A DNA stretch of 23,864 nucleotides from a virus: the UHGV virus genome UHGV-1462696; one strand, written 5' to 3'. The notes beneath the pieces are model-generated. The model was not told the DNA's origin and made no database searches. It saw only the letters and a program-made list of their open reading frames with translations. Below, piece after piece: positions 3,399 to 23,550 of this stretch (position 1 is the first letter of the stretch; each line of letters opens with the position of its first letter). The translations under genes and the position numbers were made by a program.

Positions 3399-3413
3399 CT
3401 ACCTTTAAGGTAA
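3399..3413. promoter_or_regulatory. TTACC-N5-GGTAA-type palindrome (CTACC-TTTAA-GGTAA) in the promoter of the 246-aa gene
   Basis: 31-45 nt upstream of the ATG at 3368; on the gene strand the site reads TTACCTTAAAGGTAGAAT, so the -10-like TAGAAT overlaps it. Confidence 0.5.
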
Positions 3414-4097: not shown

Positions 4098-4174
4098 TGG
4101 CGTGGCATGCAGGATTCGAACCTGCGACCAACCGCTTAGAAGGCGGTTGCTCTGTCCAACTGAGCTAATGCCAC
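4098..4174 (-). tRNA. tRNA-Arg (anticodon UCU), phage-encoded
   Basis: Reverse complement gives a 77-nt cloverleaf: acceptor GTGGCAT/ATGCCAC, D-arm GCTC-AGTTGGACA-GAGC, anticodon stem ACCGC/GCGGT with loop CTTCTAA (anticodon TCT), T-arm GCAGG-TTCGAAT-CCTGC, discriminator G, encoded CCA. Confidence 0.85.
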
Positions 4175-4496: not shown

Positions 4497-4511
4497 TTAC
4501 CTGAAAGGTAA
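4497..4511. promoter_or_regulatory. TTACC-TGAAA-GGTAA palindrome (17-mer identical to the site at 23536) in the divergent region between the tRNA and the portal module
   Basis: Read directly; 91 nt upstream of the ATG at 4602. Confidence 0.55.
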
Positions 4512-4822: not shown

Positions 4823-6502
4823 ATGGCGGAAACAACTAAAGAGCGATTGAACAAACAGTTCGCACAACTTGAAAGCGAGCGTCAGTCGTTCGAGCCGCAC
4901 TGGCGCGAGTTGAGTGATTACATCAACCCGCGTGGTTCCCGCTTTCTGACTTCTGAGGTCAACCGTAACGATCGACGCAATACACGCATTATTGATTCGA
5001 CCGGGACTATGGCGGCGCGCACTCTCGCCAGCGGCATGATGTCAGGCATCACAAGCCCCGCGCGTCCGTGGTTTCGCCTGGCTACGCCAGATCCTGAAAT
5101 GATGGATTATGGCCCTGTTAAGTTGTGGCTTGAGGCGGTGCAGAACCGCATGAACGATATGTTCAATAAGTCGAATCTCTATCAGTCGCTGCCGCAGTTA
5201 TACGGAAGCCTCGGCACATACAGCACTGGTGCAATGGCAGTGCTGGAGGATGACGAGGACATCATTCGCACAATGCCATTCCCGATAGGCAGTTACTACC
5301 TGGCTAACTCACCTCGTGGCAGTGTGGACACCTGTTTTCGCAAGTTCTCTATGACTGTTCGTCAGCTTGTTCAGGAGTTCGGGCTAAATAACGTCAGCGA
5401 ATCCGTAAAAAGCATGTGGGAAAGCGGCACTTACGAGAAGTGGATTGAAGTGATGCATTCGGTTTACCCGAACATTGACCGCGATACATCGAAGCTGGAT
5501 AGCAAGAACAAGCCATTCAAATCGGTTTATTACGAGGTTGGCGGCGATAACGACAAGTTGTTGCGTGAGTCCGGATTCGATGAGTTTCCAATTATGGCTC
5601 CGCGCTGGGAAGTTAACGGCGAAGATGTTTATGGATCATCATGCCCGGGTATGCTGGCGCTTGGACCTGTTAAGGCATTGCAGCTTCTCCAGAAGCGCAA
5701 GTCGCAGTTGATTGATAAAGCCACCAATCCGCCGATGGTTGCTCCGACTTCCCTCAAGAATCAGCGCGCCTCCCTTCTTCCTGGCGACATCACGTATATC
5801 GATCAGATTACTGGTCAGGATGGTTTCAGGCCTGCTTATCTGGTTAACCCCAGTACAGCAGATCTGGTGGCAGACATTCAGGACACTCGCCAAATCATTA
5901 ACAGCGCCTACTTTGTCGATCTGTTCATGATGTTGCAGAACATCAATACCCGCTCGATGCCTGTTGAAGCGGTGATCGAAATGAAAGAAGAAAAACTTTT
6001 GATGTTGGGGCCGGTTCTGGAGCGTCTGAACGACGAATGTCTTAATCCTCTCATTGATCGCGCTTTCTCGATGATGGTGCGTAAAAACATGCTGCCGCCA
6101 CCGCCTGACGCGATGGAAGGCATGCCCCTGAAGGTCGAATACATTTCCGTCATGGCTCAGGCGCAGAAGTCTATCGGCCTGTCCAGTCTGGCGTCCACGG
6201 TTAACTTCATTGGTCAACTTGCGCAAGCGAAACCAGAAGCTCTCGACAAACTCAACGTTGATCAGGCGATCGATGCATTCGCTGATATGTCCGGAGTGTC
6301 TCCAACCGTCATTGTTCCGCAGGAACAGGTTGAGCAGGCTCGCCAGCAACGGGCACAGCAGCAACAGCAGCAACAAATGATGGCGATGGGGATGGCGGCG
6401 GCACAGGGTGCCAAGACGCTAAGCGAAGCTAAAACTTCGGATCCGAGTGTTTTGTCAGCTATGGCGAATGCAGTTAGTGGTCAGGGTGGGCAATCACAAT
6501 GA
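4823..6502 (+). CDS. Portal protein (T7 gp8-like head-to-tail connector)
   Basis: 559 aa; position after terminase; Q/M/A-rich C-terminal tail (QQQQQQQMMAMGMAAAQG) resembling the T7 gp8 C-terminus; strong SD. Confidence 0.75.
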   Translation: MAETTKERLNKQFAQLESERQSFEPHWRELSDYINPRGSRFLTSEVNRNDRRNTRIIDSTGTMAARTLASGMMSGITSPARPWFRLATPDPEMMDYGPVKLWLEAVQNRMNDMFNKSNLYQSLPQLYGSLGTYSTGAMAVLEDDEDIIRTMPFPIGSYYLANSPRGSVDTCFRKFSMTVRQLVQEFGLNNVSESVKSMWESGTYEKWIEVMHSVYPNIDRDTSKLDSKNKPFKSVYYEVGGDNDKLLRESGFDEFPIMAPRWEVNGEDVYGSSCPGMLALGPVKALQLLQKRKSQLIDKATNPPMVAPTSLKNQRASLLPGDITYIDQITGQDGFRPAYLVNPSTADLVADIQDTRQIINSAYFVDLFMMLQNINTRSMPVEAVIEMKEEKLLMLGPVLERLNDECLNPLIDRAFSMMVRKNMLPPPPDAMEGMPLKVEYISVMAQAQKSIGLSSLASTVNFIGQLAQAKPEALDKLNVDQAIDAFADMSGVSPTVIVPQEQVEQARQQRAQQQQQQQMMAMGMAAAQGAKTLSEAKTSDPSVLSAMANAVSGQGGQSQ

Positions 6503-20668: not shown

Positions 20669-21229
20669 ATGAAGGCAATTATATTTTTTGTTTCAATATT
20701 GATGTCTGCATTTTCTTTTGCAGGGCAAAATGTTAAATGCGAACTTCAATACTTTGGAGATAACGATAAATTTAAGGTAACTCAGTTTTCTTTTATGGGG
20801 ATTCCATCTGATTCATACCTTTATACCTGTGCCGACTGTGGAGGCATCCAGATAAACGTGTTCCCATCTATTCAGACTGTTGCTTCCTACTCATTTGAAA
20901 ACAACATTGATTTCGAAAGGAAAATCAATGCTGAATACAACAGAAAAGACATAGCTAAACTTGAGATGGAAAACGTTACTCAAGGCGGGAGAATAAAATA
21001 TTCAATCACCGATACTGGTTTGGCAGAGTTTTACCCAGAGGGCAAAAAGATAAGCTACCTCTACTTTTTAGCCAAGCAACAAAATGGTAAAGAACAAGTA
21101 GGTTATTCAGGATTTGTTACCTCTAACGGGGATAAGTCATGCTCAATTATTGCGACATATCCAGGAAAAGAAATTTCTTTTCTGGGAAGTAAATCTTTAA
21201 GCTACTTTATGAATCATATATCAATGTAG
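20669..21229 (+). CDS. Secreted or periplasmic hypothetical protein (moron)
   Basis: Signal peptide MKAIIFFVSILMSAFSFA then GQN, no lipobox; strongly AT-rich codon usage unlike the flanking virion genes; starts 2 nt after the upstream stop, so likely co-transcribed with late genes. Confidence 0.6.
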   Translation: MKAIIFFVSILMSAFSFAGQNVKCELQYFGDNDKFKVTQFSFMGIPSDSYLYTCADCGGIQINVFPSIQTVASYSFENNIDFERKINAEYNRKDIAKLEMENVTQGGRIKYSITDTGLAEFYPEGKKISYLYFLAKQQNGKEQVGYSGFVTSNGDKSCSIIATYPGKEISFLGSKSLSYFMNHISM

Positions 21230-21242: not shown

Positions 21243-21266
21243 AGGCCGCTTTCGCGGCCTTGTTTT
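21243..21266 (+). terminator. Intrinsic terminator (AGGCCGC-tttc-GCGGCCT followed by GTTTTT) ending the + strand late transcript
   Basis: Read directly. Confidence 0.7.
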
Positions 21267-21304: not shown

Positions 21305-21329
21305 CACAAAAAAGCCCGCAACGCGGGCT
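21305..21329 (-). terminator. Intrinsic terminator on minus strand (AGCCCGC-gtt-GCGGGCT followed by TTTTTTGT), overlapping the stop of the YafO-like gene
   Basis: Read from the reverse complement. Confidence 0.6.
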
Positions 21330-21874
21330 TATTCCTTCCATTTATCAGAAAAAAGATCTTCTTCTAAAGGCATTGGTTCTGTTTTTGTTTTCTCAAAGAA
21401 TTGATAACTGATAGTGATTGCTTCCTCTTTAAACTCTTCTTGCTCAGTTATGTTGTGGGCATCTGCGTCAACAAAAAACATAACCAGCGCATCACGATTG
21501 TGATTTACCGAATAAACTAAAAAGCAATCACTTGTTGGTATGCATTTTACTTGCACAGACGCTATATTTTTCCATGCATCCCAAGATGATTTTTTACCAG
21601 TGTGTTTTTTATCACTATCTTCTGGAATATAGTCTTGGTTATCGACATGAGTATGCCTGACATTTAGTTTAAGCATTTCTGTCGGACGAGCAAATGCAGC
21701 ATCTTTACCAAGAGATGGATGGTATCCCGTTTTCCAATACTGGGTAAAGGCATCAGATACTTTCTTCAGCTCAAGATCAGATGCACAAAGGGCCGAGAAA
21801 TTTTGCGTATGCAATACTCGACCCTTATATCTGACAATTTGATTTTTATCATTCTGCGACGCAGACGAACTCAT
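21329..21874 (-). CDS. YafO-like toxin candidate (ribosome-dependent mRNA interferase family) with acidic C-terminal tail
   Basis: Motifs FTQYWKTGYHPSLGKDAAF, NVRHTHV and CFLVYSVNHNRDALVMFFVDADAH parallel YafO segments as recalled (FISYKRDGVLPDIFGRDALY; VAHIHL; AHLVYCQGAFDEQAWLLIAILKPEPH); AT-rich; AAGGA SD before ATG at 21874; the track ORF extends to 21901. Confidence 0.5.
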   Translation of the reverse strand: MSSSASQNDKNQIVRYKGRVLHTQNFSALCASDLELKKVSDAFTQYWKTGYHPSLGKDAAFARPTEMLKLNVRHTHVDNQDYIPEDSDKKHTGKKSSWDAWKNIASVQVKCIPTSDCFLVYSVNHNRDALVMFFVDADAHNITEQEEFKEEAITISYQFFEKTKTEPMPLEEDLFSDKWKE

Positions 21875-22028
21875 AATTTTCCTTATTGTTACGAGAATCA
21901 AAGAAAGCTCGGGATACGCGACTTGCGTGATCTTTTGTCATAGTAACTTTTACGTACTCTACGCTTCCATTGAAAGAACGTCTTGCGGCAGCTTGCGCTC
22001 TACGCATCTGCAATTTTTCGTTTCGCAT
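21849..22028 (-). CDS. Small basic ORF (59 aa, below the track cutoff); candidate antitoxin or regulator
   Basis: Hand-translated from the reverse complement: MRNEKLQMRRAQAAARRSFNGSVEYVKVTMTKDHASRVSRAFFDSRNNKENYEFVCVAE; GAGG SD 7 nt upstream; overlaps the start of the YafO-like gene by 26 nt in another frame; sigma70-like promoter TTGGTT-17-TGTAAT upstream. Confidence 0.3.
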   Translation of the reverse strand: MRNEKLQMRRAQAAARRSFNGSVEYVKVTMTKDHASRVSRAFFDSRNNKENYEFVCVAE

Positions 22029-22088
22029 GACATTACCTCATATCTCATAAGTTCATTACACGGATTAATAAAAATGAAACCAATCCGT

Positions 22089-22103
22089 TTACCCTTGAGG
22101 TAA
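22089..22103. promoter_or_regulatory. TTACC-CTTGA-GGTAA palindrome adjacent to the predicted promoter of the small-ORF / YafO-like unit
   Basis: Read directly; 61-75 nt upstream of the ATG at 22028. Confidence 0.5.
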
Positions 22104-22175
22104 TAGTACGCTATTCACCCACAGTCTGCAATCTGTACAGAATTATTTAAAGGCACATCCCTGTGCCGCCGCCCG

Positions 22176-22886
22176 TCAGAAGAACCCAGCCTTGTCGTTG
22201 ATGTACTCCGCGTGAGTCTGGATATCACGCAGGCATTTGCTCACACCAACGATGTAGCAAAACATGGTGGTCAGCTCCGCCGCCGCGCCCGATACATCGT
22301 GCCCGTCTTCCTGCAACTGGTTCAGCAAATTCATCAGCAGTGAGTTCTCCGTCAGGCCGAGAACACCAGACGGAGAATGAATCAGACTGCGGTAGCCGGG
22401 CTTCAGTGGGGCACTGTAGGTTTTGTTCTCTATCTTCATTGCCTGCATCACTGCTGATGCTGTGGCGTTGGCTACCTGGTCGGCAACCATCTTTATGCGT
22501 TCTTCCTGCGGGAGCGAGTTTTTAATGTAACTTCCGGTGCGGCGGATCTGAGGAAGAACCTCACCTGTAACCCATTTACGAAAGCGGTAGGGGATAGTGC
22601 CTGGTGTCACCGCATCGCGGCAGCGGAGGATCAGTGTGTAGAGGCCTGACTCGGAGATGATGTTGATCTCTTTTACTCGGCTGTCAAAAATTGCACGATG
22701 TTCATGCCCTATGTTGAACATAGACCTTTCATCATCATCCAGTTTTTCAAGTGCTTGGGTGACGTTTTGGATACGCAGCGCACTACAAACGTCTTGGGCT
22801 ACAAACCATGGTTGGCCATCGATAATGATGGAACGGATAGGGTTAACAGATTCAAATTTGAAGATGGCAGTTTGAGCATTAGCCAT
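22176..22886 (-). CDS. ant: Phage antirepressor-like protein (N-terminal Bro-N domain plus C-terminal Ant-type domain)
   Basis: N-terminal AIFKFESVNPIRSIIIDGQPWFVAQDVCSALRIQNVTQALEKLDDDE is a typical Bro-N signature; ATG at 22886 with GGAG SD is preferred over the GTG at 22901 used by the track. Confidence 0.75.
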   Translation of the reverse strand: MANAQTAIFKFESVNPIRSIIIDGQPWFVAQDVCSALRIQNVTQALEKLDDDERSMFNIGHEHRAIFDSRVKEINIISESGLYTLILRCRDAVTPGTIPYRFRKWVTGEVLPQIRRTGSYIKNSLPQEERIKMVADQVANATASAVMQAMKIENKTYSAPLKPGYRSLIHSPSGVLGLTENSLLMNLLNQLQEDGHDVSGAAAELTTMFCYIVGVSKCLRDIQTHAEYINDKAGFF

Positions 22887-23041
22887 GGTGGTTATCTCCA
22901 CTTAGTGATTTTAATCACCACCGCAACGCCAATTACTGGTGGTGAACTGGACAAGGTTGGCGTACCGGCCTAAGTGGTACCGGCGTCCTTTCGGACCCCT
23001 GCCCAGCCCACCATAATTCGGATATGGCTGTGCTTAACGCA

Positions 23042-23065
23042 TAAAAAAACCACGTCTGGCGTGGT
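23042..23065 (-). terminator. Intrinsic terminator on minus strand (ACCACG-ccaga-CGTGGT followed by TTTTTTTAT)
   Basis: Read from the reverse complement; downstream of the truncated ant paralog. Confidence 0.6.
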
Positions 23066-23155
23066 ATGCGCCACTTAGTAACTCGGGACGCCAATCCCGG
23101 CACTGGATTTTGCCAGTGCCCGATTACTATGGCACAAGAGGAGTGCGATGTAAAT

Positions 23156-23170
23156 TTACCGCAAAGGTAA
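23156..23170. promoter_or_regulatory. TTACC-GCAAA-GGTAA palindrome embedded in the 30-nt loop of a 10-bp inverted repeat (AGAGGAGTGC 23137-23146 / GCACTCCTCT 23177-23186)
   Basis: Read directly. Confidence 0.5.
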
Positions 23171-23201: not shown

Positions 23202-23459
23202 TTATCTGGTTTGTTTTCGTAATTGTTCGGCACAATAGTCGAGATGTGTTTGCAGATCCCGCATAGACATCTGTGAGCTGGTGACGTAGTTAATCAGTGC
23301 AGTCAGTTCGGCAAGTGGGCCATCGACATTAAATCCATCCTTATCGAGATCCCGGAGTAATTTCATCAAGTGCGATCCCTCCACCAGTGACCTGACGCCT
23401 CCCGGCGTGTGAATCCTTTCGGTAAATCCGTCTTCCAGTGGATAGTGATACTGCTGCAT
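23202..23459 (-). CDS. Stand-alone paralog of the antirepressor C-terminal domain (about 85 aa)
   Basis: ERIHTPGGVRSLVEGSHLMKLLRDLDKDGFNVDGPLAELTALINYV...RDLQTHLDYC aligns with SLIHSPSGVLGLTENSLLMNLLNQLQEDGHDVSGAAAELTTMFCYI...RDIQTHAEYI in the ant product; ATG at 23459 with GGAG SD; the track ORF begins at 23525. Confidence 0.6.
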   Translation of the reverse strand: MQQYHYPLEDGFTERIHTPGGVRSLVEGSHLMKLLRDLDKDGFNVDGPLAELTALINYVTSSQMSMRDLQTHLDYCAEQLRKQTR

Positions 23460-23535
23460 CTTATCTTCTCCATGTAATAACTGTATATTTATACAGTAGC
23501 AAATAATTTGTTTGCTATCCAGCACGTTTTGCGAA

Positions 23536-23550
23536 TTACCTGAAAGGTAA
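23536..23550. promoter_or_regulatory. TTACC-TGAAA-GGTAA palindrome in the divergent region between the ant paralog and the tail fibre gene
   Basis: 17-mer TTACCTGAAAGGTAATA identical to the site at 4497; 105 nt upstream of the tail fibre ATG. Confidence 0.55.

Follow-up and report, generated by a model that had tools for sequence, protein, structure and literature searches.

The yafNO genes of Escherichia coli K-12 form an experimentally proven toxin-antitoxin (TA) pair, the toxin of which, YafO, cuts translated mRNA only (PMC2814082); a recent review describes the ribosome dependence of YafO as debated (PMC11980606). Prophage genes labelled YafO have been mentioned in passing in surveys, without experimental test (PMC9836087; PMC10449497), and our literature search found no paper on the long form of YafO described here or on its partner. 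The subject of this study is a pair of overlapping genes in the virus genome UHGV-1462696, a stretch of 23,864 nucleotides (nt) that we refer to as the window. The downstream gene (21329-21874, minus strand) encodes a long-form YafO-family toxin of 181 amino acids (aa) with a RelE/HigB (BECR) fold, and the upstream gene (21849-22028, minus strand) encodes a basic 59-aa partner, a candidate antitoxin without known family. From the sequence comparisons presented below we consider it probable, at roughly 0.6, that the two genes constitute a type II TA-like cargo cassette with a new small antitoxin family, whose transcription is gated by the prophage repressor.

The window corresponds to the late region of a Uetakevirus (epsilon15/phiV10/TL-2011b-like) prophage of E. 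coli, and the stretch of approximately 1 kb around the pair matches phage TL-2011b at 98.6% identity across 97% of that stretch. The TL-2011b counterparts are gp44, which RefSeq names 'type II toxin-antitoxin system YafO family toxin', and gp45, annotated as hypothetical. The toxin is already named in databases, including 61 of 5,426 complete E. coli genomes in RefSeq, and the partner is mostly unannotated.

A long-form subfamily of YafO

The initial annotation had proposed a YafO-like toxin at 21329-21874 from three characteristic sequence blocks. In a Pfam search, the 181-aa protein passed the gathering cut-off of YafO_toxin (PF13957) narrowly (26.3 bits against a cut-off of 25, E = 8e-6), the match covering model positions 3-92 of 101. 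BLASTP against K-12 YafO produced only a mis-registered, non-significant alignment, and the homology between the two proteins is therefore visible only with profiles. A profile built from 23 close homologues and searched against 1.84 billion representatives retrieved 70 proteins, about 50 of which are 165-195 aa long, the remainder grading into lengths of 130-150 aa. Precomputed Pfam YafO matches were present in only 7 of the 27 homologue clusters listed, and Pfam YafO was matched by 39 of 60 aligned toxin-family sequences, with a best E of 1e-39.

Within the family alignment G56 and H76 are invariant, and F43, D58, P64, S115, Y121 and H140 are conserved at about 90% or more. The sequence blocks recognised at the outset held up, as seven core residues (F43, G56, D58, H74, H76, Y121 and H140) are identical in K-12 YafO, where they correspond to F25, G39, D41, H60, H62, Y88 and H109. 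A structural model built from a 71-sequence alignment shows a RelE/HigB fold with high confidence; it replaced a first AlphaFold2 model, made from the 23 close homologues, that was discarded at a predicted local distance difference test score of 57. On the basis of its Pfam match, profile continuity, shared core residues and fold, the 181-aa protein belongs to the YafO family, as had been claimed, and we name its group the long-form YafO subfamily.

Other resources added little to this assignment. Foldseek comparison of the toxin model with PDB and BFVD gave no match at E <= 0.001, and a PDB sequence search with the toxin profile returned spurious matches only, so that apparently no structure has been solved from this toxin family. 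NCBIfam holds no family for either the toxin or the partner, a scan of species-representative genomes found no relative, and PHROGs places the toxin in phrog_1651, a family of unknown function.

Relative to K-12 YafO (132 aa), the toxin carries a 17-aa N-terminal extension, an insertion of roughly 30 aa (about residues 80-112) within which W98 and W101 are conserved, and an acidic 20-aa C-terminal tail, MPLEEDLFSDKW. This tail had been noticed in the initial annotation; it is indeed missing in K-12 YafO, is conserved in the close family, where six of its positions are invariant, and is confidently packed in the model. One disrupted copy of the toxin gene was seen, at locus L045 (5387-5921), where an 8-nt deletion frameshifts the toxin to 112 aa and leaves the partner intact; a 114-aa protein cluster, P0022, may represent the same allele.

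The 59-aa partner is a conserved gene

The toxin ORF (open reading frame) spans 21329-21901 on the minus strand, and its conserved start is the ATG at 21874, which yields the 181-aa product. A Shine-Dalgarno sequence for the toxin, AAGGA (21880-21884), lies 5 nt before this ATG and inside the partner gene, whose own Shine-Dalgarno sequence, GAGG, is found at 22036-22039. The two genes overlap by 26 nt, in agreement with the original description of the 181-aa and 59-aa ORFs and their coordinates, and overlap or abutment of the two genes is seen again in distant loci. The overlap, together with the internal Shine-Dalgarno sequence (21849-21884, minus strand), suggests that translation of the pair is coupled.

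We examined 47 loci, comprising 44 viral contigs and three loci from two exact-protein look-ups, and in all 47 an upstream ORF ends in or just before the toxin start. The partner evolves under purifying selection, with an omega of 0.18-0.28 over eight closer and diverged loci, at a synonymous divergence (dS) of 0.4-1.5, and of 0.41 for the most distant locus, L047. Its length changes by whole codons, and its frame is the only one open in all loci. Partner and toxin identities correlate across loci (Spearman rho 0.89, 55 non-independent pairs), and the locus tags of the two genes, where given for both in Pectobacterium carotovorum, are consecutive. The partner matches phrog_6685 over its full length, and a database search returned 39 protein clusters of 50-86 aa (most of them 55-71 aa), none with a Pfam domain and all, where the organism is named, from an Enterobacterales genus. 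The 59-aa ORF is a real, conserved gene, as the initial annotation had supposed when it singled out this small frame; conservation in every locus, an omega of about 0.2 and co-divergence with the toxin all speak for it.

Conservation of the partner is concentrated in a C-terminal motif, vTMtKEhAxxvSxxFYdsRNdkxNYEF, and its N-terminus varies. A hidden Markov model (HMM) of the close partners, run over 1,016 six-frame ORFs, recognised the partner at L051 (E = 3.5e-3) and, at L047, two copies in tandem (E = 1.7e-8 and 3.9e-6); one iteration added the C-terminal 27 residues of the L058 partner, which is 186 aa long (E = 1.4e-5). The motif is kept while partner size ranges from 55 to 186 aa. The two L047 copies are tandem paralogous genes (1630-1845 and 1889-2056, encoding 71 and 55 aa) that precede a single toxin gene in a distant Uetakevirus-like contig. 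Although the N-terminus of the toxin is encoded under the partner motif, it varies from one distant locus to another and has no ordered structure in the model, and selection in the overlap is therefore most simply explained as acting on the partner.

Two further features of the partner gene were observed at the nucleotide level. Its synonymous divergence is 2-4 times lower than that of the toxin gene for the same locus pairs (0.44 against 1.80, for example), and its first ~54 nt are almost invariant among loci that are 77-81% identical. These observations hint at an added nucleotide-level constraint, such as translation initiation or RNA structure.

The partner is as unlike YafN as the initial annotation had stated. 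BLASTP against YafN (97 aa) gave no alignment, and a resemblance that we suspected between the C-termini of the two proteins was rejected by an HMM score of -0.3 bits. Pfam returned no antitoxin family for the partner at E <= 1, only sub-threshold unrelated matches, and a profile search of PDB gave no match at E <= 10; the ribbon-helix-helix, AbrB or Phd fold that had been envisaged for it thus finds no sequence support in either search. The partner, whose N-terminus is strongly basic, appears from its sequence to have no recognisable DNA-binding domain. A YafO of canonical length (131 aa, with a Pfam match) is encoded at a metagenomic locus, L062 (2322-2896), where the gene upstream is again not of the YafN/Phd type: it overlaps the toxin gene and specifies 62 aa that match no Pfam family, basic at the N-terminus and acidic at the C-terminus. 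The YafO family may therefore often have small partners other than Phd proteins.

Transcriptional control and genomic setting of the pair

When the 170 nt preceding the partner gene are aligned for nine diverged loci, little is conserved apart from four elements: the Shine-Dalgarno sequence, a -35 box of the form TTGc/a, a -10 box of the form TAnnAT, and the palindrome TTACC-N5-GGTAA. In the window the promoter (22103-22131, minus strand) consists of the -35 box TTGCAG (22126-22131), a 17-nt spacer and the -10 box TACTAT (22103-22108); it fell below the threshold of a default promoter scan and was not called. A second candidate picked by eye, TTGGTT-17-TGTAAT (about 22050-22084), was dropped because the stretch is not conserved. 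The arms of the palindrome (22089-22103) are invariant in the nine loci, and its left arm starts on the last T of the -10 box. Transcription of the pair would end at a strong intrinsic terminator with an 8-bp stem and a T-run (21312-21330, minus strand), which faces the terminator (21243-21260) of a plus-strand gene.

Conservation in diverged loci thus supports the promoter of its own that the initial annotation had assigned to the pair, and a terminator scan confirms its terminator, whereas the adjoining palindrome is phage-wide and not a site of the module. The window holds five exact and three one-mismatch copies of TTACC-N5-GGTAA, against 0.27 expected, at 526-540, 544-558, 3399-3413, 4497-4511, 21031-21045, 22089-22103, 23156-23170 and 23536-23550. 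Fourteen sites are present in TL-2011b (L061) and 14 in phiV10 (L064), which is without the module. Pairs of these sites enclose the helix-turn-helix repressor gene in both phages, an arrangement just like that of OL and OR around cI in lambdoid phages: in TL-2011b they lie at 5172/5234 and 5946/5994 around gp10 (5306-5890), and in phiV10 at 31953/32015 and 32727/32775 around p40 (32087-32671). Other copies precede the small terminase gene and every accessory transcription unit in the vicinity of the module. The epsilon15 genome paper reportedly gives a similar operator consensus.

We infer from this distribution that TTACC-N5-GGTAA is the putative operator of the prophage repressor, which would place the pair under immunity control. 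A single repressor apparently governs many promoters directly, among them those of the terminase genes, the antirepressor-like genes and the cargo slots. Given the operator at its promoter, the pair is probably repressed, at least in part, in the lysogen, which makes expression from the prophage in the manner of a classical moron less plausible. We found no module-specific operator at which the antitoxin might autoregulate, the sole conserved promoter palindrome being the phage-wide one, and outside the Uetakevirus context the sequences preceding the pair proved to have no palindrome in common.

The position given for the pair in the initial annotation, between ejection proteins and the tail fibre, is correct by gene order relative to phiV10: it follows an 850-aa gene in the position of the phiV10 virion structural protein p20 and precedes the tail fibre gene. 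The segment is also the AT-rich cargo it was said to be, with a GC content of ~0.40 as compared with ~0.55 in the structural genes. In sister phages the same slot holds unrelated genes with the same operator in front, namely two tiny unrelated ORFs in phiv142-3 (L002 3443-3919, Orf9/Orf10) and an overlapping pair encoding a 108-aa protein and a 167-aa DUF2335 membrane protein in EC.W1-9 (L055 1500-2301). The slot is therefore a hotspot for exchangeable, operator-controlled cargo. EC.W1-9 also carries a divergent long-form YafO (L055 3559-4474; 168 aa, 31% identical) on the other side of the antirepressor gene, with an overlapping, upstream 139-aa partner that resembles the 59-aa protein at its C-terminal end only.

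The pair itself is seen in three unrelated genomic contexts. Along with the Uetakevirus-like prophages, the more distant of which encode partners of 84, 139 and 186 aa, it occurs in the tail-gene region of a siphovirus-type prophage, between Big_2/DUF6246 genes and the tape measure gene, with a toxin that is 45% identical and a partner of 63 aa. A further copy is chromosomal and adjoins a gene whose product has DNA-methylase and specificity-subunit domains. The pair has the generic layout of type II TA systems, with small, co-oriented, packed or overlapping and co-inherited genes.

Immediately upstream of the pair lies a P1-immI-like, RNA-controlled antirepressor unit. Rfam identifies a C4 antisense RNA (22935-23018, minus strand; 66 bits, gathering cut-off 45) and an isrK Hfq-binding RNA (23043-23119, minus strand; 67 bits, gathering cut-off 50), both of which are situated downstream of a promoter overlapped by the operator (23198-23170) and upstream of a Bro-N antirepressor-like gene (22901-22176). 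The promoter, TTGAAA-17-TATATT, is directly followed by the site at 23156-23170. Just after the stop of the Bro-N gene, between it and the pair, is a hairpin, GGCACA-GGGA-TGTGCC (22152-22167, minus strand), whose stem is kept in related loci by a compensatory A-T to G-C change and whose T-run is too short for the terminator scan. Further upstream, a 107-aa ORF (23202-23525, minus strand) shares phrog_450 and phrog_15539 with the C-terminal part of the 241-aa Bro-N protein (22176-22901); it resembles a free-standing antirepressor C-terminal domain that has an operator (23536-23550) to itself.

On the other side of the pair, an AT-rich (37% GC) cargo gene at 20669-21229 on the plus strand encodes a 186-aa protein with an N-terminal signal-peptide-like segment, which matches phrog_11983 (unknown function) and no Pfam family. 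This gene is missing from TL-2011b, where Arc-like and Ant genes are present instead. A tRNA-Arg gene (anticodon TCT) is located at 4098-4174 on the minus strand, between the terminase and portal regions.

Readings of the pair and comparison with known systems

If the pair is a TA-like cargo cassette, we envisage that it occupies a variable slot of the Uetakevirus prophage and is transcribed from a sigma-70-type promoter whose -10 box abuts TTACC-N5-GGTAA, so that the prophage repressor, and not the antitoxin, would set its expression. Expression would then be low or leaky in the lysogen and high after induction or infection of a naive cell. The long-form YafO endoribonuclease would, by homology, cut mRNA during translation and arrest growth, and the upstream, translationally coupled 59-aa protein would be its cognate inhibitor, possibly binding and blocking the toxin through its C-terminal ~30 residues, which end in N-Y-E-F. 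Candidate roles for such a cassette include exclusion or abortive infection, prophage addiction, and a lytic-cycle or post-induction function.

Several observations weigh against this interpretation. The Pfam score of the 181-aa protein taken alone is marginal, and PADLOC-DB v2 gave no match at E <= 1 for the toxin or the partner. The partner has no detectable homology to known antitoxins, and its family is incompletely connected by profile: in the iterated HMM search the L055 and L052/L054 partners ranked next at non-significant scores, and the L048 partner was not recovered. The well-packed tail and internal insertion of the toxin could shift its activity or targets relative to YafO. Finally, if operator repression is tight in lysogens, a classical TA role in the lysogen becomes less likely.

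The pair might instead be a lytic-cycle effector, expressed on loss of the repressor, in which the ribonuclease (RNase) degrades host or competitor mRNA and the small protein buffers its timing or dosage. In its favour, the -10 box adjoins the operator that flanks the repressor gene and precedes the terminase and antirepressor-like genes, the neighbouring C4 RNA and Bro-N unit is under that operator as well, and K-12 yafNO is DNA-damage inducible via the dinB promoter (PMC2814082). Against this, the pair also exists without the operator in the siphovirus late operon and at the chromosomal locus beside a restriction-modification-type gene, settings more in keeping with a selfish or defensive cassette that acts on its own. 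Since sister phages have unrelated cargo in the slot, the pair is dispensable for lytic growth, and a translation-dependent RNase would also cut phage mRNAs. We regard a purely lytic function, the chief alternative, as rather unlikely.

Similarly speculative is the proposal that the partner is a portable YafO-neutralising peptide, whose ~30 C-terminal residues, ending in N-Y-E-F/L, have been fused to varied N-terminal parts within a repressor-wired RNase switch for abortive infection or exclusion. The N-terminal parts in question range from a basic helix of 20 residues to domains 80-160 residues long. Were this improbable scenario true, the locus would be an RNase switch triggered by induction or infection, with the variable N-terminal domains as sensors.

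It is quite unlikely that the toxin is a solitary homologue beside an unrelated small gene, the partner being a DNA- or RNA-binding regulator or having another role, and the toxin being non-toxic or otherwise controlled, for example by its C-terminal tail. The dissimilarity of the partner to any antitoxin, its basic N-terminus, and the conserved, packed tail and insertion that classical YafO lacks would fit such an arrangement. That the two genes are strictly adjacent, overlap and diverge together in different phage types and genera argues otherwise, as do the conservation of the partner motif even where the overlapping toxin N-terminus varies, the retention of putative catalytic His, Tyr and Asp positions, and the fact that the only disrupted copy (L045) is hit in the toxin and not in the partner. 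Lastly, the idea that the 59-aa frame is an untranslated chance ORF in the toxin 5' leader, which its shortness, its omission by PGAP from the one E. coli chromosome inspected, where the toxin is named, and the hit table for the 61 E. coli genomes, which shows only the toxin under the match, might seem to favour, is effectively refuted by an open frame with the same ends in all loci, indels in multiples of three, low omega, a Shine-Dalgarno sequence, the lack of any other conserved frame, a PHROG family and 39 protein clusters.

Should the pair prove to be a TA-like cassette, the YafO branch of the RelE superfamily would gain a new family of antitoxins. In the inspected chromosome the toxin appears as an 'orphan toxin' because the 59-aa partner is uncalled, and recognising the partner family would correct annotations of this kind. 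The pair also offers a test case for how a short peptide without known fold might neutralise a BECR RNase, and another for a TA pair placed under the prophage immunity repressor rather than its own antitoxin. Its practical interest is moderate, and partner swapping among toxin families is well known.

Among described systems, K-12 YafN-YafO shares with the pair the toxin core (G, D, HxH, Y and H), the RelE-like fold, and the order of closely packed genes, antitoxin then toxin. In both cases the promoter is under a repressor linked to DNA damage, LexA at the dinB promoter of yafNO (PMC2814082) and, presumably, the prophage repressor at the promoter of the pair described here. The two systems differ in that K-12 YafO is 132 aa and the toxin here 181 aa; in that YafN is a 97-aa Phd/YefM protein, whereas the 59-aa partner has no Phd/YefM domain or similarity; and in that the operator here is phage-wide, as opposed to the antitoxin autoregulation site of YafN-YafO. 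The ribosome-dependent mRNases HigB2, HigB1, RelE, YoeB and YafQ, which are BECR proteins of the RelE/ParE superfamily, are only 4-17% identical to the toxin in sequence and are paired with different antitoxins, and the HigB gene order is reversed.

The P1-type immI operon consists of the c4 antisense RNA, icd and ant. The module recalls this arrangement in lying directly downstream of the C4/isrK RNAs and the Bro-N unit with their operator-overlapped promoter, but it has its own promoter and terminator and is swapped for other cargo in sister phages; the YafO pair is a neighbour of the immunity operon and not a conserved part of it. In design, the proposed cassette resembles PaaR2-PaaA2-ParE2, a three-component TA system of E. 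coli O157 prophages that combines a small antitoxin without a DNA-binding domain with a CI-like regulator. By this analogy, the differences would lie in the toxin, a gyrase poison in that system and an mRNase by its probable target here, and in the regulator, which in PaaR2-PaaA2-ParE2 is the product of a dedicated third gene and here would be the main phage repressor, acting at many promoters.

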